Shown piece after piece: positions 1-8,228 of a stretch of DNA of 8,228 nucleotides (positions are counted from its first letter, which is position 1; the number at the start of each line of letters is the position of its first letter). Source of the DNA: a virus (lineage: Duplodnaviria; Heunggongvirae; Uroviricota; Caudoviricetes); IMG/VR virus record IMGVR_UViG_2675903352_000011, positions 1 through 8,228 of that record; one strand, 5' to 3'. The notes under the pieces are model-generated. The model was not told the origin of the DNA. It searched no databases and saw nothing but the letters and a program-made list of their open reading frames with translations. Made by a program: the position numbers and the translations under genes.

Positions 1-154
1 TAACGAGGAAAGACCTCTGCGAGGTACGAATCCGAACCGGCCAGACGGAGGTCGCTGTCTTCACAGCTTACGAACCTGAGGAGTAAGAGACCCGGCGAGG
101 GAGAAATCCCTCGCCACCTCTGATGTGGCAGGCATCCTCAACGCACCCGCACTT

Positions 155-181
155 AACCCGCTTCGGCGGGTTTTTGTTTTT
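155..181 (+). terminator. Rho-independent terminator (GC stem, UUCG tetraloop, T-tract)
   Basis: Seen in sequence: aacccgc / ttcg / gcgggtt stem-loop at 155-172 followed by tttttgtttttatttt. Upstream 100-122 holds a second hairpin (gcgaggga gaaa tccctcgc). No ORF is listed in 1-300. Confidence 0.6.
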
Positions 182-302
182 ATTTTCAACGCGTTTGAAG
201 ATCTGGACGGTGCCGGAATAGAATCAAAAATACTTAAGTAGCGCGCAGGGATAAGAGGGATGGTCCCTTAAAGGGGAGAGCTAATTATCCGGAAGGATTC
301 TG

Positions 303-554
303 ATGATGAACATCGAAGAACTGCGTAAAATTTTTTGTGAAGATGGCCTCTATGCTGTGTGCGTTGAAAATGGAAATCTTGTTAGTCATTACCGCATTAT
401 GTGTTTGCGAAAGAATGGGGCTGCGTTAATTAATTTTGTGGATGGTCGAGTGACAGACGGATTTATCTTGCGCGAAGGTGAGTTTGTCACTTCATTACAG
501 GCACTGAAAGAGATCGGAATAAAAGCAGGCTTTTCAGCTTTTGCAGAAGAATAA
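303..554 (+). CDS. Hypothetical prophage protein, 83 aa, family not recognised
   Basis: ORF with ATG start at 303 preceded by a Shine-Dalgarno-like ggaagga about 6 nt upstream. Translation is protein-like and not low-complexity. I cannot assign a family from memory. Confidence 0.55.
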   Translation: MMNIEELRKIFCEDGLYAVCVENGNLVSHYRIMCLRKNGAALINFVDGRVTDGFILREGEFVTSLQALKEIGIKAGFSAFAEE

Positions 555-620
555 ACTCATCTACAATCTTGCGCGGGGCTGAACTCCCGCTGAGTAACAC
601 CGTGCCACCGGAGAAAACCG

Positions 621-899
621 ATGGCACGCAACGTAAAATATTACAATTCTGATAATTCGCCCGTTCTTGCCTGCACGCACGAGCGGTATTCTCACGCATT
701 CAAGTCTGAATGGTTCCAGCACCCTCCATGCACTGAAGAGCAGGCTGAATGGATAATTCAGTGTTACCGCAGGCGCGGATACGAGGTTAAGAAAGCTCTT
801 AGTCTCGACTACCGTCACTGGATAATCTCAGTCAGATTGCCTTACTCCGAACGCCCATCGCGTCCGTCCCGTACATTCCAGCAACGCATCTGGAGGTAA
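621..899 (+). CDS. Hypothetical prophage protein, 92 aa; possibly the N-terminal fragment of a disrupted longer gene
   Basis: ATG at 621 with GGAG about 8 nt upstream. Same frame as the 1053..1922 ORF; separated from it by a ~150 nt segment that is open only in the +1 frame (901..1098). May be an independent small gene or part of a frameshifted gene. Confidence 0.4.
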   Translation: MARNVKYYNSDNSPVLACTHERYSHAFKSEWFQHPPCTEEQAEWIIQCYRRRGYEVKKALSLDYRHWIISVRLPYSERPSRPSRTFQQRIWR

Positions 900-1052
900 C
901 GTGCGGGTATTACTTCGACCTGTTCTGGTACCGGAACTCGGGCTGGTGGTCGTTAAGCCGGGCCGTGAATCCATGCCGGTATTCCACAATACCCGGGTAC
1001 TGGTGGAGCCGGAACCGAAAAGCATGCGTAATCTGCCGTCCGCCAGCCGCTG

Positions 1053-1922
1053 GTGGAAGACAAAACATTGCTGCCGTTTTTCAGTAACGCACGGGTAATT
1101 CGTGCTGCTGGTGCATTGTCTGACTGGCTGTTGCGCCATATTAAATCCTGCCAGTGGCCACACGGCGATTATCATCACAGCGAAACCGTTATTCACCGTT
1201 ATGGTACCGGCGCAATGGTGTTGTGCTGGCACTGCGACAACCAGCTGCGTGACCAGACATCCGAATCACTCGAGCAACTTGCTCATCAAAACCTGTCAGC
1301 ATGGATGATTGACGTCATCGGTCACGCAATAAGCGGTACGCAGGAGCGTGAATTATCTCTGGCTGAATTATCCTGGTGGGCGGTCCGCAATCAGGTGGCG
1401 GACGCGTTACCGGAAGCGGTATTACGTCGCTCGCTGGGATTACCAGCGGAAAAAAACTGCTCGGTGTACCGCGAAAGCGACATCGTACCGGGAGAGCAGA
1501 CCGCCACCAGCATATTGAAACAGCGCACAAAAAATCTTGCACCGTTGCCTCACGCCCACCAGCAACAAAACCCATCACAGGAAAAGACGGTGGTAAGCAT
1601 CACCGTTGATCCAGAGTCTCCGGAATCTTTCATGAAGCTGCCTAAACGTCACCGTTGGGTTAAGGAGAAATACACACGCTGGGTTAAGACACAGCCGTGT
1701 GCTTGCTGCGGTATGCCAGCCGACGATCCGCATCATCTGATTGGTCACGGGCAGGGCGGAATGGGAACCAAAGCACATGATCTCTTTGTGTTGCCTTTGT
1801 GCAGAAAGCATCACGACGAGTTGCATACGGATACCGTGGCATTTGAAGAGAAGTATGGCTCCCAACTGGAGCTGATTTTTCGATTTATCGATCGCGCGCT
1901 GGCAATTGGTGTGCTGGCCTAA
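1053..1922 (+). CDS. DUF968-type prophage protein (YdfU-like) with C-terminal HNH-like Cys/His motif
   Basis: 289-aa ORF. C-terminal region [22 protein letters not shown]...[10 protein letters not shown] has paired Cys and His-His motifs typical of HNH-like zinc fingers. Position immediately upstream of Q matches nin-region genes of lambdoid prophages. The start is uncertain: the listed start is GTG, and frame-0 is open from 1032. Confidence 0.6.
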
Positions 1923-1939
1923 TTTTGTGGAGTAAGTTG

Positions 1940-2317
1940 ATGCGTGATATTCAGATGGTTCTTGAGCGTTGGGGGGCATGGGCGGCTAATAATCATGAAG
2001 ATGTGACCTGGTCGTCCATTGCCGCCGGTTTTAAGGGATTAATTCCTTCAAAAGTAAGATCTCGTCCGCAATGCTGTGACGATGACGCGATGATCATTTG
2101 TGAATGTATGGCTCGCCTGAAAAAAAACAACAGCGATTTACATGATTTATTGGTGGACTATTATGTCGGCGGCATGACTTTTATGGCGCTTGCACGTAAG
2201 CATGGGCGATCTGATTGTTGGGTTGGCAGGATGCTCCAGAAAGCTGAGGGCGTAGTGGAGGGCATGCTGATGGTGTTGGATCTCCGATTGGAGATGGATG
2301 CTGATTGTTCGAAATAA
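1940..2317 (+). CDS. quuD: Late-gene antiterminator Q (phage 82 / DLP12 QuuD-like)
   Basis: Translation [24 protein letters not shown]...[18 protein letters not shown]... matches my memory of the short Q antiterminator of DLP12-type prophages. ATG at 1940 with GGAG about 9 nt upstream (the ORF track starts at an upstream TTG at 1925). Followed by a short promoter-terminator region as expected for PR'-tR'. Confidence 0.8.
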
Positions 2318-2359
2318 TTAAAGGAAAAGTTGCTGTCTGATTTTCATTAGTCTAACATT

Positions 2360-2400
2360 TTAAATGTTGGAATCGCAACGTAGTTATTATCATATAACAG
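2360..2400 (+). promoter_or_regulatory. Candidate late promoter PR' with Q-utilisation region (approximate)
   Basis: Inference from position directly downstream of Q and upstream of a strong terminator. Weak sigma70-like elements: ttggaa at 2367-2372 and tatcat at 2388-2393 (spacing is a short 15 nt); tcatat at 2390-2395 is an alternative. Exact hexamers and TSS cannot be fixed by eye. Confidence 0.3.
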
Positions 2401-2415
2401 CTTGTTTCCTGATTT

Positions 2416-2446
2416 AGCCAGCCTCCCCAAAGGCTGGTTTTTTCTA
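2416..2446 (+). terminator. Rho-independent terminator (tR'-like)
   Basis: Seen in sequence: agccagcc / tccccaaa / ggctgg hairpin followed by ttttttc. Lies about 100 nt downstream of the Q stop. On the minus strand the hairpin is not followed by a U-tract, so it is mainly a + strand terminator. Confidence 0.65.
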
Positions 2447-2471
2447 ATAAGTATCATTTCGGGTGGGGATT

Positions 2472-2996
2472 TTATTGTTTAACCCATAATAGTTCATTGA
2501 CATTGAATCCCAACTTTTGAGCGGTACGCACATAGTCTGCTTTTACATTATCTGGAATAGTTTGGGTCCTTGCCAGAATCCATAGGTATTCTCTGTTCGG
2601 ACCACTGACAAGAGCATACTTATACTCATCATCCAGTTTGATTACATTATAGCCACCATAGAAGGGGCCAAAAAACGAAACTTTCAACGCTGCAGTTTTA
2701 GTATCTCCAGTAAAGTATGCTTTACCTTCGCTCTCGCTCCATTTGTTTTTCGTTGGATCGTATCCACGGTTAAGTACGCGAATCCCTCCGTCGTTCCGTT
2801 TTTCATAAGTAGCGCTGACCTGTTCCAGACCACGTTCGAACCAGTTCTCGAGGCGAGCTATTTCATACCATTTTCCGAGGTAGCGGTTGGCGTCAAAATT
2901 TGTAATCGGCTGCACACCTTTAGGTGGTGTCGGGGCCTTACATGCTATAAGAGTGAAAGAGAGTGCAATGCCAGTCAACACAGGCCATAACTTCAT
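2472..2996 (-). CDS. blc: Bacterial lipocalin (Blc-like) outer-membrane lipoprotein
   Basis: 174-aa translation with signal peptide and lipobox (MKLWPVLTGIALSFTLIAC, Cys followed by K at +2, not an Asp Lol-avoidance signal). Strong resemblance to E. coli Blc motifs: NFDANRYLGKWYEIARLENWFERGLEQVSATY, KAYFTGD..AALKVSFFGPFYGGYNVI, YLWILART. AGGA Shine-Dalgarno 6-8 nt upstream of the ATG on the minus strand. Opposite orientation to the late operon. Confidence 0.85.
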   Translation of the reverse strand: MKLWPVLTGIALSFTLIACKAPTPPKGVQPITNFDANRYLGKWYEIARLENWFERGLEQVSATYEKRNDGGIRVLNRGYDPTKNKWSESEGKAYFTGDTKTAALKVSFFGPFYGGYNVIKLDDEYKYALVSGPNREYLWILARTQTIPDNVKADYVRTAQKLGFNVNELLWVKQ

Positions 2997-3188
2997 AATA
3001 AATCCTGTACTTTTGATAGTTGAGAGTAAGTATGAAAGATAGATGAGTACGACCGATCACTTAAAGAACTTTCCTACTATATTAGGAATAGTCAATAACA
3101 GAAAAATTGTCAGTGATGAAGCCAGAAAGGCAATTTAGTCCGTGCACTACAAAGTTTATGTGTTAATGAATTAGTCAAGGGGGAGGAA

Positions 3189-4148
3189 ATGATAAAAAAA
3201 CCTGTGATTGGGATCAGCGGTTGTTTGGGCGGTTCTGCTGTTCGTTTTGATGGTGGTCACAAAAGAGATGACTTTTTAATGGACAAATTAGTGGAATGGG
3301 TAACATTCAGACCAGTATGTCCGGAAATGGCTATAGGGCTGCCAGTTCCGCGTCCTGCTCTACGACTTGTGCGCTCGAAGCAAGGAAATATACGGATGTG
3401 TTTCAGCCACGACCAGAATGAGGATGTGACAGAGAGAATGACAGAGTTTAGTCGTTCTTATATGGACAAATTAAAGGATGTATCGGGGTTTGTGGTTTGT
3501 GCTAAATCTCCCAGCTGTGGCATGGAGCGCGTGCGTGTCTATGATGAAAATGGTAATCGAGGTCGTAAAGATGGAGTGGGACTATTTACGAGCACTTTGA
3601 TGGAAAAGTTTTCCTGGCTACCGGTTGAAGAGGATGGGCGATTACATGATCCAGTGCTTCGTGAGAATTTTATTGAAAGAGTTTTTGCTTTGCATGAGCT
3701 CAATCACCTTTACAAGGAGAAATTATCAAGAAGAGAGTTATTAGCTTTTCATAGTCGTTATAAGCTTCAGTTGTTGGCGCATAGCCAGGCAGGCTATAAA
3801 GATATGGGACCATTTGTGGCTGCAATACACGAGTGGGCGGACCTTGAATCATACTTTGAGGTGTATCGTGATAATCTGATGGCGATTCTCAGAAAACCAG
3901 CATCACGTAAAAATCACACGAATGTGCTGATGCATATACAGGGGTATTTTAGTAATTACTTAAGTACACGCCAGCGTAAAGAGTTGAGCGAGGTTATACT
4001 TAACTATCGCTTTGGCACATTGCCTCTTCTTGCGCCGTTGACTCTGCTGAAGCATTATCTGGGTGAGTATCCTAATGATTACTTGCTTACACAGAATTAC
4101 TTCGATCCCTATCCGGAAGAACTGGCTCTAAGACTGATGGTGAATTAA
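3189..4148 (+). CDS. DUF523-DUF1722 fusion protein (TudS-like, putative [4Fe-4S] thiouracil/thiouridine desulfidase family)
   Basis: 319 aa. N-terminal PVIGISGCLGGSAVRFDGGHKRD is a DUF523-type motif. Cysteines at about positions 12, 44 and 104 fit the three-Cys ligand pattern I recall for TudS-type DUF523 proteins. The C-terminal half (AFHSRYKLQLLAHSQAGYKDMG...) resembles DUF1722. Strong RBS gggggagg about 5 nt upstream of the ATG. Confidence 0.7.
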   Translation: MIKKPVIGISGCLGGSAVRFDGGHKRDDFLMDKLVEWVTFRPVCPEMAIGLPVPRPALRLVRSKQGNIRMCFSHDQNEDVTERMTEFSRSYMDKLKDVSGFVVCAKSPSCGMERVRVYDENGNRGRKDGVGLFTSTLMEKFSWLPVEEDGRLHDPVLRENFIERVFALHELNHLYKEKLSRRELLAFHSRYKLQLLAHSQAGYKDMGPFVAAIHEWADLESYFEVYRDNLMAILRKPASRKNHTNVLMHIQGYFSNYLSTRQRKELSEVILNYRFGTLPLLAPLTLLKHYLGEYPNDYLLTQNYFDPYPEELALRLMVN

Positions 4149-4545
4149 CTGTATGCGATATCATCTGAAAGTGATGAGTTCCTGTATGCAGGATATTTAC
4201 AATCGTAAAAACTACGCTATGATGCTCATAGTGTCAGTTTTTATAAAAATCCTGTTCACGCTAAAGAAAACATTGAGATGCAATTTAATGTTGGTAAACA
4301 TACCAGCCCCAAAAGATTTTATTCAATCTGTTTTTATATGAAGATATTTCAAGTGAATATTAAGAGCATATAATATTATTATTGCACGCAGCTATTATAA
4401 TATAACAGATTAGTTTAATGATTTGTTTTTTGTGAGTTAAACACATGGTTTTATAGTTGTGATGCAATGAGATTTTCCTTATTGTTGAACTGGCGAATAT
4501 TGATTTTCCACCTATACTTACCTGGTGTAACCCCAATGATATCAG

Positions 4546-5268
4546 GTGGATAATATGCCATACATATGTTCTATCATTTTGGTGTTGAACTCGTTTGGTG
4601 TCCGAATTGGTAAAGAAGATATTTTGTTTAAAAAAGGAAATGCTGTTCTCATTGAATACAATTTAAAAGATCTTTTTTCGTCAAATACAGATCATCTAAT
4701 GATCGTAGATGTTGAGGAGAAAACAGTTAATGATTTCTTTAAAAACTACACACTCTCACCTTTTTCTGTAAGAAGGTTTTATCCGTCATACTTTATAGTA
4801 GAATGTGAAGATTTTTCATTGTTAAAGAACTTGGTTGCATGCTTGAATTGTGATAGCAAAACCGTGGATGTAGTTAGAAATCAAATATCACTTGCATGTC
4901 TTGCTGTCTTATCTTCAGAGAAAATAGTGCAAAGTTTTTTGTTCGGAAGTCTTAATAGCTTAGGTTGTAAAGTTAAGGCTATTATTCACTCGGATATCTC
5001 AGCGTCATGGAGACTTTGTGATATATCTTCAAGATTATATATGAGCGAGAGTTTGTTAAAAAGAAAATTAAAAGATGAAGGATTATCGTTTAGTAAATTA
5101 ATTCTTGAAGAACGAATGATGATGGCGCAAAGATTATTGATCTACAGTAACCATACTGTCGGCAAGGTGGCGGGAATATGCGGGTATGACAATGCATCAT
5201 ATTTTGTAAGTGTTTTTAGAGGATATTTTGGTGTGCCTCCGCACCAATATTTATCAAGATTTTCTTAG
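4546..5268 (+). CDS. AraC-family transcriptional regulator (AppY / YdeO / PatE-like prophage regulator)
   Basis: 240 aa. C-terminal AraC-type HTH signature (SESLLKRKLKDEGLSFSKLILEERMMMAQRLLIYSNHTVGKVAGICGYDNASYFVSVFRGYFGVPPHQY). N-terminus MDNMPYICSIILVLNSFG... resembles the AppY-like subgroup. Very AT-rich gene and upstream region. Start could be M1 or M4. Confidence 0.8.
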   Translation: MDNMPYICSIILVLNSFGVRIGKEDILFKKGNAVLIEYNLKDLFSSNTDHLMIVDVEEKTVNDFFKNYTLSPFSVRRFYPSYFIVECEDFSLLKNLVACLNCDSKTVDVVRNQISLACLAVLSSEKIVQSFLFGSLNSLGCKVKAIIHSDISASWRLCDISSRLYMSESLLKRKLKDEGLSFSKLILEERMMMAQRLLIYSNHTVGKVAGICGYDNASYFVSVFRGYFGVPPHQYLSRFS

Positions 5269-5336
5269 AAGATATGATGTGATGGCATTTTATAAAGTTA
5301 TTTTTTGAAGTGTAAGATTATACGATATTTTTAGCT

Positions 5337-5369
5337 ACGCCAGAATAATTGCTGGCGTTTTTCTTTTTG
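5337..5369 (+). terminator. Rho-independent terminator downstream of the AraC-family gene
   Basis: Seen in sequence: acgccag / aataattg / ctggcg hairpin followed by tttttctttttg. Confidence 0.6.
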
Positions 5370-5458
5370 AATAGATGTTCGGGCCTTACGCTAATGTAAC
5401 TTCTTTCCTTCTTCGAACCAAACCGTGTACACCATCCGTTATCTGCGGAGGTGAGGCT

Positions 5459-5674
5459 ATGAAATCCATGGATAAGTTAACAACGGGCATCGCCTACAGC
5501 ACCTCTGCAGGCAGTGCTGGCTACTGGTTTTTACAGTTGCTCGATAAAGTCACGCCCTCACAGTGGGCGGCAATAGGTGTATTGGGTAGTCTGGTATTTG
5601 GCATGCTGACGTATCTGACAAACCTTTATTTCAAGATTAAAGAAGACAGGCGTAAGGTTGCGAGAAGAGAGTAA
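5459..5674 (+). CDS. essD: Class II holin / pinholin (S21, EssD-like) with dual-start motif
   Basis: 71 aa: [71 protein letters not shown]. Near-identical to my memory of phage 21 S / DLP12 EssD. Met-Lys-Ser-Met dual start is typical of the antiholin/holin pair. Two TM segments and a charged C-terminal tail. ggaggtgagg Shine-Dalgarno directly upstream. The ORF-track extension to 5375 is rejected. Confidence 0.9.
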
Positions 5675-5678
5675 TCCA

Positions 5679-6410
5679 ATGACTCAAGACTATGAACTGG
5701 TTGTGAAAGGAGTTCGCAATTTTGAGAATAAAGTGGCGGTAACTGTAGCCTTACGGGACAAAAAACACTTTGACGGTGAAATTTTTGACCTGGACATCTC
5801 GCTGGACCGTGTTGAAGGTGCCGCGCTGGAGTTTTATGAGGCAGCAGCCAGAATGAGCGTCAGGCAGGTCCTCCTGGGAGTGGCAGAAAAATTGTCAGAA
5901 AAAGTTGAGTCTTATCTGCAGCATCAGTACTCCATTGAGATTGAAAATTCTGCCAATAAACACGATCGTCCTCATCTTGCGGGTTTTGATAGTGCAGTTA
6001 AAGCCAACACCAGGCGCGCAGGGCAGGAAAAAAACGTCGGGGATGACATAAGTCGTGCGGTGGTTACTGTAGAGTTTCCAGGGCATATGGCATCAAGAGA
6101 GAAAGTCGGGAAAGGTGGTGCTCCTGTGCTGACGAAAAGAATCGGCAGCAAGGTCAGTGTCTGGCTTGATAATGAAGAAATGTTGTCGGTTATGTACAAG
6201 GAAGACTACGACCCGAAAACAACGTTCAGCGACTATGAAGCGAGAGCAAAAAAGTATGCCTTGTTGATAGTTGCCGCGATGCGAGCCGTAAATGAGCGAC
6301 AACGCCACCACGAAAATGGGGTGGCGTTTGTTGCTAAAGCTGTTCAGCAAACTATTGATGGTATGACGACGAAGTTTCTTCAGGAATTAAAATTGTCTCA
6401 GCAAGAGTAA
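5679..6410 (+). CDS. Unknown-function protein (243 aa) inserted between holin and endolysin
   Basis: ATG at 5679, 4 nt after the holin stop, suggesting co-transcription or translational coupling with the late lysis operon. The ORF-track start at 5658 is a TTG inside the holin gene. No family recognised; no obvious TM segments; no nuclease, NTPase or HTH motif I can identify by eye. Confidence 0.6.
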   Translation: MTQDYELVVKGVRNFENKVAVTVALRDKKHFDGEIFDLDISLDRVEGAALEFYEAAARMSVRQVLLGVAEKLSEKVESYLQHQYSIEIENSANKHDRPHLAGFDSAVKANTRRAGQEKNVGDDISRAVVTVEFPGHMASREKVGKGGAPVLTKRIGSKVSVWLDNEEMLSVMYKEDYDPKTTFSDYEARAKKYALLIVAAMRAVNERQRHHENGVAFVAKAVQQTIDGMTTKFLQELKLSQQE

Positions 6411-6633
6411 CGCATGATTCGGCAATCAATTTGTTCATTTCGTCTAAAACTTCCTGCGGGGTTTCCAGGGATTCGGGTAATTTTATTGATGAAAAAGTGT
6501 TAGCTGATTTAGTAAGCAAATCTTTAATAATTGCTTTTTTCTCATCTGGTAAAGCGTTAACTAGGAGTATGACAACCTGTCTGATGGCCAGAATATCAGC
6601 AAAAGCTTTTTTAGATAAATAAGTATCGCTCAT
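6352..6633 (-). CDS. Unknown-function small protein (93 aa), convergent to and 3'-overlapping the 243-aa gene
   Basis: ATG (minus) at 6633 with AAGGA Shine-Dalgarno about 4-5 nt upstream. Translation MSDTYLSKKAFADILAIRQVVILLVNALPDEKKAIIKDLL... is helical and charged, not antisense junk. Very AT-rich. Last ~19 codons overlap the 3' end of the + strand 243-aa gene (6352-6410). Confidence 0.5.
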   Translation of the reverse strand: MSDTYLSKKAFADILAIRQVVILLVNALPDEKKAIIKDLLTKSANTFSSIKLPESLETPQEVLDEMNKLIAESCVTLAETILIPEETSSSYHQ

Positions 6634-6759
6634 ATGTTGTCCTTACTGTTTGTTCTGTGATCTTCACATTGTCAGTATTACCCCTGCGAGGAACTACCTG
6701 CCGGGCTGAGTACTAAACATATCCAGGGTTCAGGAACCGATAAATCCTGATAAATATCC

Positions 6760-7293
6760 ATGAACGTAAAAATCAAATACGGCCTGTCAGCTGCCGTTCT
6801 GGCGCTGATTGCTGCAGGCGCGTCTGCTCCTCAAATACTTGACCAGTTTCTGGATGAAAAAGAAGGTAACCACACAACGGCATACCGTGATGGTTCTGGC
6901 ATATGGACCATCTGTCGTGGTGCCACAATGGTGGATGGTAAGCCCGTCATACCGGGAATGAAGCTGTCGAAGGAAAAATGCGACCAGGTTAACGCTATTG
7001 AACGTGATAAGGCGCTGGCATGGGTGGATCGCAATATAAAAGTACCACTGACCGAACCACAAAAAGCAGGTATTGCGTCATTTTGTCCCTATAACATTGG
7101 CCCCGGTAAGTGTTTCCCGTCGACGTTTTATAAGCGGCTGAATGCCGGTGATCGTAAAGGCGCATGCGAGGCGATTCGCTGGTGGATTAAGGACGGTGGC
7201 CGTGATTGCCGCATTCGTTCAAATAACTGTTACGGTCAGGTTATTCGTCGTGACCAGGAGAGTGCGCTGGTGTGCTGGGGGATCGACAGATAA
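6760..7293 (+). CDS. rrrD: SAR endolysin (T4-lysozyme-like muramidase, RrrD / R21-like)
   Basis: 177 aa. N-terminal signal-anchor-release domain YGLSAAVLALIAAGASAP (Gly/Ala-rich, weakly hydrophobic). Catalytic E...D...T spacing matches T4 lysozyme (E-9-D-6-T in EGNHTTAYRDGSGIWT). Closely matches my memory of DLP12 RrrD. Pairing with a pinholin is the established S21/R21 arrangement. Confidence 0.9.
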   Translation: MNVKIKYGLSAAVLALIAAGASAPQILDQFLDEKEGNHTTAYRDGSGIWTICRGATMVDGKPVIPGMKLSKEKCDQVNAIERDKALAWVDRNIKVPLTEPQKAGIASFCPYNIGPGKCFPSTFYKRLNAGDRKGACEAIRWWIKDGGRDCRIRSNNCYGQVIRRDQESALVCWGIDR

Positions 7294-7383
7294 GCAGAAT
7301 ATTTTGCTGAAAAATGCCGTTTGCTCACACAAGCGGATAACACGATATTCTGCAAACTGGCAAAAGGAAGTGAATAAAAGCAA

Positions 7384-7420
7384 AAACCCCGTTTGTTGGC
7401 AGCAAGCGGGGTTTTGTTTT
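7384..7420. terminator. Bidirectional rho-independent terminator between endolysin and Rz
   Basis: Seen in sequence: (aaaa)ccccgtttg / ttggcag / caagcgggg (9-bp stem with one U-G pair) flanked by an A-tract upstream and ttttgtttt downstream, so it reads as a terminator on both strands. Confidence 0.6.
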
Positions 7421-7449
7421 CTGCCCATGGGAAAGCTAAAGGAGAAAAC

Positions 7450-7587
7450 GTGTTTGATTTTAGCAAACCGATTCTGGAGATTCGAGTGATGGCTGAAAAA
7501 TTATCCACCTGGAAGTTCATCCTTATCTGGCTGGTGTTTGTGGTTATGGGCTCCGGTTATTTCATCGGTCAGATACGCTGGTGGTGA
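7450..7587 (+). CDS. Possible small single-pass membrane peptide (45 aa from GTG 7450, or 32 aa from ATG 7489)
   Basis: In-frame GTG at 7450 preceded by ggagaaaac; alternative ATG at 7489 preceded by ggagattcgag. Encodes ...MAEKLSTWKFILIWLVFVVMGSGYFIGQIRWW with one clear hydrophobic helix. Stop TGA at 7585-7587 abuts the Rz ATG at 7589. Could instead be a non-coding remnant. Confidence 0.3.
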   Translation: MFDFSKPILEIRVMAEKLSTWKFILIWLVFVVMGSGYFIGQIRWW

Positions 7588-7588
7588 A

Positions 7589-8053
7589 ATGAACCGGATT
7601 CTGTATGGCGTGATTATTGTCCTGCTGATGGTCTGTAGTGCTCTGTGGCTGGCAACAGATCATTACCGCGATAACGCCATTACCTACAAAACACAACGCG
7701 ATGACAATGCCAGAGAGCTGAAACTGGCAGAGGCGATCATTACTGATATGCAGGTGCGCCAGCGTGACGTTGCTGCACTCGATGCAAAATATTCAAAGGA
7801 ATTAGCTGATGCGAAAGCTGAAAATGATGCTCTGCGTGATGATATTGCCGCTGGTCGTCGTCGGTTGCGCATCAGAGCAGTCTGTCCAGCCGTGCGTGAA
7901 GCCACCGCCTCCTCCGGCGTGGATGATGCAACCAGCCCCCGACTGGCAGACACCGCTGAACGGGATTATTTCACCCTCAGAGACCGATTGATGACGATGC
8001 AGAAGCAACTGGAAGGGGCACAGCTATACATTCGTGAGCAATGCCTCAGATAA
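7589..8053 (+). CDS. rzpD: Spanin inner-membrane subunit Rz (i-spanin, RzpD-like)
   Basis: 154 aa from ATG 7589: MNRILYGVIIVLLMVCSALWLATDHYRDNAITYKTQRDDNARELKLAEAIITDMQ... N-terminal TM anchor plus coiled-coil periplasmic domain, strong resemblance to lambda/DLP12 Rz. The ORF-track start at 7538 is rejected because it lacks an RBS and overlaps the upstream peptide ORF. Confidence 0.85.
   Translation: MNRILYGVIIVLLMVCSALWLATDHYRDNAITYKTQRDDNARELKLAEAIITDMQVRQRDVAALDAKYSKELADAKAENDALRDDIAAGRRRLRIRAVCPAVREATASSGVDDATSPRLADTAERDYFTLRDRLMTMQKQLEGAQLYIREQCLR
7809..7991 (+). CDS. rzoD: Spanin outer-membrane lipoprotein subunit Rz1 (o-spanin, RzoD-like), embedded in the +1 frame of Rz
   Basis: 60 aa: MRKLKMMLCVMILPLVVVGCASEQSVQPCVKPPPPPAWMMQPAPDWQTPLNGIISPSETD. 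Lipobox LVVVGC and a proline-rich segment. Lies entirely within the Rz coding region in a different frame, the classic Rz/Rz1 arrangement. Confidence 0.85.
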   Translation: MRKLKMMLCVMILPLVVVGCASEQSVQPCVKPPPPPAWMMQPAPDWQTPLNGIISPSETD

Positions 8054-8228
8054 AAACCGGCCAAGGATAATCCGCTGAAGATTTGCCGGCGGCGAAAGAG
8101 AGCCAAGGGTTCAGCCTACGCCATTACTCCTGTCGATGCAATGCATTGTATGGGGCCACCACATATTGCAATTTTTGTGCTCTCTTAAAATATATTCCAC
8201 GGGTGTCATTAGCGCGAGCGCCTTATGG

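Follow-up and report, generated by a model that had tools for sequence, protein, structure and literature searches.

The 8,228 nucleotide (nt) stretch of DNA analysed here, referred to as the window, covers positions 1–8,228 of the IMG/VR virus record IMGVR_UViG_2675903352_000011 and spans the late-control and lysis genes of a lambdoid prophage of E. coli. Between the gene for the Q antiterminator and the gene for the holin (S), the window carries an island of three cargo genes, whose predicted products are an outer-membrane lipocalin, a fusion of TudS (DUF523) and DUF1722 domains termed RudS, and a regulator of the AraC family. The island is probably a composite moron (lysogenic-conversion) island, situated in the variable slot that heads the lambdoid late operon and exchangeable as one Q-cargo-S module. 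An earlier reading of the same DNA, made from the sequence alone, had interpreted the interval as cargo at the position where Shiga toxin (Stx) phages carry their toxin genes, and the analysis supports that interpretation. Protein families were determined by Pfam, NCBIfam and PHROGs profile searches; the assignments rest on sequence-level matches and are unambiguous.

The Q-holin slot as an exchangeable module

The slot and its contents display the following features.

1940–2317 (ATG) or from 1925 (TTG), plus strand: Q antiterminator (PF06530)
2330–2358, plus strand: candidate late promoter PR', TTGCTG-17 nt-TAACAT, 12 nt past the Q stop codon, placed by positional analogy
2416–2445, plus strand: tR'-like intrinsic terminator closing a short PR' leader (terminator scan and fold)
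2472–2996, minus strand: lipocalin (Pfam Lipocalin_2)
2997–3188: intergenic region between the divergent genes, 34% GC, where the lipocalin and RudS promoters presumably lie
3189–4148, plus strand: DUF523 (TudS) and DUF1722 fusion, RudS (PF04463 and PF08349)
4205–4245, plus strand: hairpin and T-tract after RudS, a possible allele-specific terminator (fold −17.5 kcal/mol, z = −7.5)
4246–4545: AT-rich spacer with the junction of the cargo blocks and a promoter-like site
4555–5268 (alternative start 4546), plus strand: AraC/HTH_18 regulator (HTH_18, HTH_AraC)
5337–5368, plus strand: intrinsic terminator after the AraC gene (terminator scan), about 90 nt before the holin start
5456–5674, plus strand: P21-type holin (PF04971)

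Q, 125 amino acids (aa) from the ATG at 1940, matches PF06530 with an E-value of 8e-51 (171 bits) and the Q21 structures 6p18/6jnx in a phmmer search (E = 5e-9), and is thus a member of the PF06530/Q21 fold family; it shares 83% aa identity with QuuD of prophage DLP12. The holin at the right matches PF04971 (E = 8.9e-34) and is of class II (P21-type) with the dual-start motif MKSM; S21 of phage 21 is likewise annotated with dual starts.

Alignment of the Q-to-S interval across related prophages, as the sequence-only reading had proposed, shows homologous flanks around other cargo (nmpC, tRNA genes, cspB/cspF). Homology with the quuD-nmpC-essD region of DLP12 stops at 2299, 18 nt before the Q stop, and resumes with essD at 5439, 17 nt before the holin ATG. 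The variable interval measured against DLP12 is thus 2300–5438. Qin of E. coli K-12 shares the left arm as far as position 1922, where ydfU ends, and is homologous again from 5430 onward, at essQ; between these arms it has a different Q (ydfT) and cspB/cspF as cargo. Phage 21 shows the order Q, pR', terminator, tRNAs, S21, with tRNA-Asn and tRNA-Thr occupying the slot, and Stx phages carry stx there. The cargo of the window is therefore found at the known moron hotspot of lambdoid phages, with Q (1940–2317) and a terminator (2416–2445) on the left and the holin (5456–5674) on the right. It shares its place, between the Q/PR'/tR' unit and the holin, with nmpC, the phage 21 tRNA genes and stx, but the cargo itself is unrelated to these: a composite of three genes, two of them on the plus strand, with conserved terminators inside the island.

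Base composition also sets the island apart. The guanine plus cytosine (GC) content of 2318–5370 is 37.9%, as against 50.5% in 1–2317 and 47.2% in 5371–8228. The GC content at third codon positions (GC3) is 0.41 for lipocalin, 0.40 for RudS and 0.29 for AraC, compared with 0.48–0.56 for ydfU, Q, holin, lysozyme and Rz. A windowed comparison with the flanking phage genes, which the earlier reading had suggested as a check, thus finds the island lower in both GC and GC3. Its description of the interval as markedly AT-rich applies chiefly to 4149–5370 (32.0% GC), which includes the RudS-AraC intergenic region at 4149–4545 (31%); the lipocalin/RudS half, 2318–4148, is only moderately low at 41.8%. 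Within the limits that it gave, 2318–5370, the first 130 nt or so (2318–2445) belong to the Q cassette rather than the cargo, as late-promoter region and terminator. Three characteristics of a late-operon moron are found here: a place between the Q/PR'/tR' unit and the lysis cassette, a variable slot with homologous flanks, and a base composition unlike that of the neighbouring phage genes.

Segment 1898–5675 is homologous as a unit in three different prophage settings: a prophage at the Qin site (locus L001), a remnant at the bio/att-lambda site (L002) and, in L003, a lambda-like prophage that has N and cIII. The Q-cargo-holin unit is also present in the isolated phages IdasGreatGrand (L006), Lambda_2E9 (L007) and 1H12. 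Gene order hardly varies among 80 IMG/VR contigs, running Q, lipocalin, RudS, AraC, holin; ydfU is found upstream of Q in 38 of these 80 loci and is absent in most others. Of 5426 complete E. coli genomes, 1154 (approximately 21%) carry the cargo, a count close to the number of records (about 1272) with a Q allele of at least 90% nt identity to that of the window; the class at 80–90% identity is quuD. Wholesale exchange of this region has a precedent in phage 434B, where Q, the late promoter and the lysis region are replaced by DLP12 DNA (PMC9119081).

The 1H12/Lambda_ev isolates (Jouyvirus) and IdasGreatGrand show the same gene order and slot as the window. In DNA the window is 91% identical to the 1H12/Lambda_ev group over Q, lipocalin and RudS, and 94% identical to IdasGreatGrand along the entire island; their AraC proteins are 76% (1H12 type) and 86% (IdasGreatGrand type) identical to that of the window. 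The backbone upstream differs, being Qin-like (hokD-rem-ydfU) in the window and lambda-like (rusA-ylcG) in 1H12 and IdasGreatGrand.

The island is also encountered on two short contigs (L060, L065) of a 'Candidatus Nanosynbacter' metagenome-assembled genome, JARKOR01, with Q, lipocalin, RudS, AraC and holin at 85–98% protein identity. These contigs are almost certainly binning contamination.

Cargo proteins and the composite origin of the island

The three cargo open reading frames (ORFs) and their domains are as the earlier reading described them, by the ORF list, Pfam and NCBIfam, and none of the three proteins matches a morphogenesis or lysis family in Pfam or PHROGs. The lipocalin, 174 aa, matches Lipocalin_2 (PF08212, E = 7.5e-43) and the NCBIfam Blc model at 312.6 bits, above the cutoff of 267, and it aligns end to end with the E. 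coli Blc structures 3mbt/1qwd (E about 1e-66). The translation, inspected by eye, displays a lipoprotein signal, MKLWPVLTGIALSFTLIAC, with the lipobox L-I-A-C, the lipidated position at Cys19 and Lys at +2. The protein is accordingly identified by homology as a Blc-type outer-membrane lipocalin lipoprotein. Chromosomal Blc of E. coli has the same fold family and lipoprotein signal, and the window lipocalin is a paralog of it; the phage protein is closer (75–80% aa identity) to the RudS-paired lipocalins of Enterobacter, Leclercia and Citrobacter than to Blc. Over half of the lambda isolates from the intestine have been recorded as carrying blc as a moron (PMC6969025).

RudS consists of 319 aa, with PF04463 at residues 7–149 and PF08349 at residues 192–309, and matches the TudS structure 6z92 (E = 8e-4). 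It carries Cys12, Cys44 and Cys110, the [4Fe-4S] cluster residues, together with the catalytic residues Glu46, Arg55, Ser107 and Ser109. These positions match those of RudS_vir and RudS_ST (PMC11417400, Table 1), and RudS of P. putida (PP_0741) and Salmonella (STM1389) show the same two-domain architecture. Jamontas et al. (2024) report that TudS-DUF1722 fusions strip 4-thiouridine (s4U) from tRNA, and that E. coli overexpressing RudS has less s4U and a shorter growth delay induced by ultraviolet A (UVA) light; the delay is also reduced by RudS_KT (PMC11417400). By architecture and residues, the window protein is a RudS, a predicted [4Fe-4S] tRNA 4-thiouridine desulfidase. One of the proteins assayed, RudS_vir, is gp66 of phage 1H12 (H3V29_gp66) (PMC11417400), whose gene lies in the same slot, flanked by the lipocalin gene gp65 and the AraC gene gp67. 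The window RudS shares 91.8% aa identity with the copy in Lambda_2E9, which is of the same allele class as RudS_vir, and removal of s4U by the window allele is predicted from this tested class.

Chromosomal RudS genes are usually found beside light-responsive regulators of the MerR/LitR type and photolyase (PMC11417400). In Enterobacter an MlrA-like MerR gene lies between lipocalin and RudS, whereas the phage RudS has no MerR gene and is situated behind a putative Q-dependent late promoter.

Three further observations concern RudS. E. coli has been stated to lack TudS/RudS homologs, with only YbgA present (PMC11417400), whereas prophage RudS is found in the 1154 of 5426 genomes above and RudS_vir itself comes from an E. 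coli phage; a presence of approximately 21% in complete genomes thus qualifies the published statement. A RudS homolog with 72% aa identity and 47% GC is found in Citrobacter murliniae (CP163158.1, L026 6001–6960), in another lambdoid prophage and another slot, with no lipocalin gene. It follows DUF977 and PerC-like genes and precedes a DinI-like gene, DUF968 and a holin gene, which points to an independent phage capture of RudS. Finally, NZ_CP083274.1 1–1500 (Rosetta2(DE3), BL21 lineage, L077) shows the same Q and an intact lipocalin, with RudS present as a 147-nt fragment abutting the start of the record, in an assembly that looks irregular near its ends. A truncated RudS, if carried by B strains, could matter to RudS experiments in BL21 hosts.

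The AraC protein (237 aa, 33% GC) contains HTH_18 and HTH_AraC domains. Among NCBIfam models it fits YdeO best, with a full-length match (E = 2e-32), but the scores are below the equivalog cutoffs for both YdeO (112.6 bits vs 348) and GadX (89.3 vs 500). The DNA-binding domain is nearest to GadX (3mkl, E = 4e-21). BLASTP gives PatE (Sakai ECs_0287) with 47% identity over 237 aa (E = 2e-75), followed by GadW (33%), AppY (30%) and YdeO (29%). These matches place the protein in the PatE/GadW/YdeO/AppY clade, as an ortholog of neither YdeO nor GadX. Relatives in the protein database come from E. coli only and form three allele groups plus distant paralogs. The protein resembles PatE (Z0321/ECs_0287) and PsrA/PsrB in being prophage-borne, AT-rich and about 240 aa long, with the motif M..CS(V/I)I in the N-terminal part and a double HTH at the C terminus; patE, however, is located at the end of prophage Sp1/CP-933H beside pin and insertion sequence (IS) remnants, outside the Q-S slot. 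In enterohaemorrhagic E. coli (EHEC), the prophage-encoded proteins PatE and PsrB activate gadE/hdeA acid resistance, and the PatE, PsrA/PsrB family of EHEC regulators represses the locus of enterocyte effacement (PMC10877973).

Comparison of alleles and of chromosomal loci indicates that the island is composite, with two blocks of different origin. A RudS genome scan yielded 62 enterobacterial chromosomal loci (species representatives) with RudS proteins 66–76% identical. Of the 62, 42 also have, upstream of RudS and in the opposite orientation, a lipocalin gene whose product shares 68–80% aa identity with that of the phage. These chromosomal loci contain neither phage genes nor the AraC gene of the window, and the lipocalin-RudS block thus appears to be a captured chromosomal pair. 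In Citrobacter sedlakii (L014) lipocalin directly adjoins RudS with a gap of 188 nt, compared with 192 nt in the window; Leclercia, like Enterobacter, has the MlrA-like gene between the two. Homology between alleles breaks at 4266–4460 (L003) and 4306–4368 (L002), and homology to the most diverged allele ends at 4266, just past the hairpin after RudS. Synonymous divergence (dS) is 0.05–0.30 for lipocalin and RudS and 0.33–0.60 for AraC. The AraC block is lower in GC and has diverged further, and its history is probably a separate one.

Transcription, selection and the weighing of explanations

All three cargo genes are under purifying selection. Pairwise ratios of nonsynonymous to synonymous divergence (dN/dS) are 0.07–0.23 for lipocalin, 0.11–0.28 for RudS and 0.21–0.25 for AraC, similar to those of Q and holin. 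In the 80 viral contigs the ORF is intact for RudS at 80 of 80 loci, for lipocalin at 78 of 79 and for AraC at 64 of 76. The sequence-only reading had named degraded pseudogenes as the outcome that would speak against cargo; the genes are not decaying. Even decayed prophages retain part of the island. In strain S30 (L076), where IS1 truncates the prophage right after RudS, lipocalin and RudS are intact, and in the bio-site remnant both are intact and only AraC is frameshifted.

The late promoter, the Q-binding element (QBE) and the pause element were sought by comparison with DLP12 and with the fully annotated cassette of phage 21, and only a positional candidate was obtained. The phage 21 record shows, after the Q stop, an annotated −35, QBE, −10, start site with pause element, and terminator, with the −35 of pR' lying 6 nt past the stop. 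The candidate PR' at 2330–2358 is kept in the L002 and L003 alleles. It is weak (7 of 12 consensus positions), and it is absent from the listing of the consensus promoter scan. The Q21 binding motif [AT][AT]TGAGCA is absent, nor is a clear 8-bp direct repeat visible, as would be expected of a Q with only a distant relation to Q21.

The tR'-like element at 2416–2445, approximately 100 nt past the Q stop, has a 9-bp stem with 5 GC pairs and a T-run (fold −15.6 kcal/mol, z = −4.2), and its stem is identical in the diverged alleles L002, L003, L006 and L079. The terminator after AraC folds with −11.6 kcal/mol (z = −2.7), and its stem ACGCCAG/CTGGCGT with T-run is retained in the 80–88% identical alleles L003, L006 and L079. 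The hairpin after RudS is strong in the window allele, but it is weaker in L002 and L006 (−9.3) and poor in L003 and L079 (−4.5), and as a general terminator it was downgraded. A promoter-like site, TTGTGA-16-TATAGT with 9 of 12 consensus positions, is found at 4430–4457, upstream of AraC.

These elements suggest how the favoured composite moron would work. Block A (approximately 2446–4266) is probably a divergent lipocalin-RudS pair captured from an enterobacterial chromosome, and block B (approximately 4460–5438, 32% GC) a separately acquired PatE-like AraC gene with its own promoter-like site and conserved terminator. During lysogeny the cargo genes would be transcribed from their own promoters, while tR' and the terminator after AraC would shield the holin from cargo transcription and from basal PR' transcription. 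On induction, Q-modified RNA polymerase starting at PR' would pass all terminators on its way to the lysis genes, reading RudS and AraC in sense and the lipocalin gene in antisense. Because of the gene orientation and the terminators, we infer Q-driven read-through and a separate promoter for the lipocalin, much as the earlier reading had supposed. The benefit may fall to the lysogen: the lipocalin, for which homology suggests envelope lipid handling, and RudS would alter envelope and near-ultraviolet (UV) stress physiology, lowering tRNA s4U and shortening the growth delay under UVA, and the AraC protein might cross-regulate host loci silenced by H-NS, such as the GAD/hdeA acid-resistance genes, in the manner of PatE and PsrB.

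Several points weigh against this scheme. The PR' at 2330–2358 is a putative one, located by analogy with phage 21, and the promoter scan gave no site above threshold for lipocalin or RudS, including in 2997–3188. The hairpin after RudS is unconserved, and therefore RudS and AraC may be co-transcribed in some alleles. A DNA-level donor search in the 62 enterobacterial representatives gave 66–70% identity at best, at 47–62% GC, and no direct donor. RudS_vir lowers tRNA s4U on overexpression only, and less than other RudS proteins do (PMC11417400). An identity of 47% to PatE would not guarantee that the AraC protein shares its targets, and AraC is disrupted at 12 of 76 viral loci (approximately 16%) in addition to the frameshift in L002.

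An alternative with a distinctly smaller, though real, chance of being correct is that the plus-strand cargo, chiefly RudS, serves the phage. RudS made late would strip s4U8 from host tRNA, and its loss would avert near-UV crosslinks, uncharged tRNA and a stringent response that throttles late protein synthesis; the bulk of RudS would appear after induction, which is often UV-triggered in nature. The gene does lie on the late-operon strand, directly 3' of PR'/tR', and is intact at every viral locus. tRNA genes are found at the head of the Q-dependent late operon in phage 21, where tRNA-Asn and tRNA-Thr occupy this very slot, and in Stx phages. The capture in C. murliniae is beside a DinI-like, SOS-related gene, and the overexpression and RudS_KT results cited above (PMC11417400) agree with such an activity. 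However, s4U removal does not repair tRNAs that are already crosslinked, and the lipocalin partner, on the opposite strand, cannot be a late gene. Intact lipocalin and RudS in the prophages L076 and L002, which are decayed and do not lyse the host, favour a host-level benefit over a purely lytic role.

Far less probable is that the island is a neutral passenger with no role, hitch-hiking with a successful Q-lysis cassette and intact through recent capture. The cargo is tightly tied to one Q allele class, so that its frequency could mirror the success of the cassette; IS elements are found in or beside the island in several of the sampled genomes, and the disruptions of AraC would fit as well. 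Yet dN/dS is low in alleles that have diverged to a dS of 0.17–0.60, which points to purifying selection over a long time; RudS has kept every catalytic residue, and the lipocalin-RudS pairing persists on enterobacterial chromosomes as well. Still more remote is an anti-phage defence or superinfection-exclusion locus. Variable slots of prophages often hold defence genes, and a lipoprotein exposed at the cell surface could conceivably mask a receptor. PADLOC, however, assigned no defence family to the three cargo proteins, DUF1327, orf93 or ydfU, and all three cargo proteins are clearly homologous to non-defence families, an assignment that experiments support in one case. A composite moron retained to the advantage of the lysogen thus remains the reading that we prefer.

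Neighbouring features and biological meaning

Outside the slot the window displays the following.

Left end, upstream of ydfU: rem-like gene and small ORFs
901–1922, upstream of Q: DUF968/ydfU gene
Right of the holin: DUF1327 protein, then a minus-strand 93-aa ORF (6352–6633)
6760–7293: SAR-type lysozyme
Right end of the window, after the lysozyme: Rz with embedded Rz1

Relative to K-12 Qin and L001, about 770 extra bases (5977–6749) are found between the DUF1327 gene and the lysozyme gene. They lengthen the DUF1327 protein to 250 aa (phrog_34145), compared with the 103 aa of YdfR, and add the minus-strand 93-aa ORF at 6352–6633 (36% GC, phrog_2572), which gives no match in Pfam. This segment looks like a second small cargo insertion, within the lysis cassette.

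The ydfU gene (901–1922) shows deletions of 19 nt and 9 nt relative to L001, at approximately 1040 and 1105. The 19-nt deletion is a frameshift and splits the 349-aa ydfU frame into ORFs of 65 aa (901–1098) and 289 aa (1053–1922); the window prophage is therefore at least slightly decayed.

Scanning the entire window against Rfam (E ≤ 1) gave three sub-threshold matches, none of them credible. The match at 2403–2446 was rejected as a noncoding RNA, being simply the tR' hairpin. Another, at 95–176 on the plus strand, is to isrK, an Hfq-binding small RNA from a Salmonella prophage, scoring 25.7 bits where the gathering threshold is 50 (E = 0.023). Its position is 5' of the rem-like gene, in the part of the window that shares homology with hokD-rem of K-12 Qin; the match may be due to chance or reflect an RNA element of the hok/sok type.

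Within the AT-rich spacer a 62-aa ORF (4153–4341, plus strand) follows RudS and overlaps the hairpin there; it has no PHROG match. A short hypothetical ORF is annotated at the matching position of IdasGreatGrand (7857–8030 in L006). The 62-aa ORF is probably not a gene.

The island is of a known, ordinary kind: the blc moron has been reported, the island's RudS has been cloned and assayed, and prophage AraC regulators of this clade are well described. A search of the literature on its expression and regulation turned up only the RudS paper (PMC11417400) and an infant-gut coliphage paper. The composite origin, the tight link to one Q allele and the presence in approximately 21% of E. coli genomes were not found in the literature searched.

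It is conceivable, although on balance doubtful, that prophage RudS sets about one fifth of E. coli strains apart from K-12 in tRNA s4U and near-UV growth delay, and that it may also act as a phage auxiliary s4U eraser which keeps late translation running in sunlight after UV induction. If true, this would be a phage-encoded RNA-modification eraser for host takeover, and it would run against the published statement that E. coli lacks RudS. Differences between E. coli strains in s4U content and UVA response may then hinge on prophage content. Commensal and environmental E. coli carry the PatE-like AraC regulator just as widely, and it could tie prophage carriage to the regulation of acid resistance beyond EHEC.

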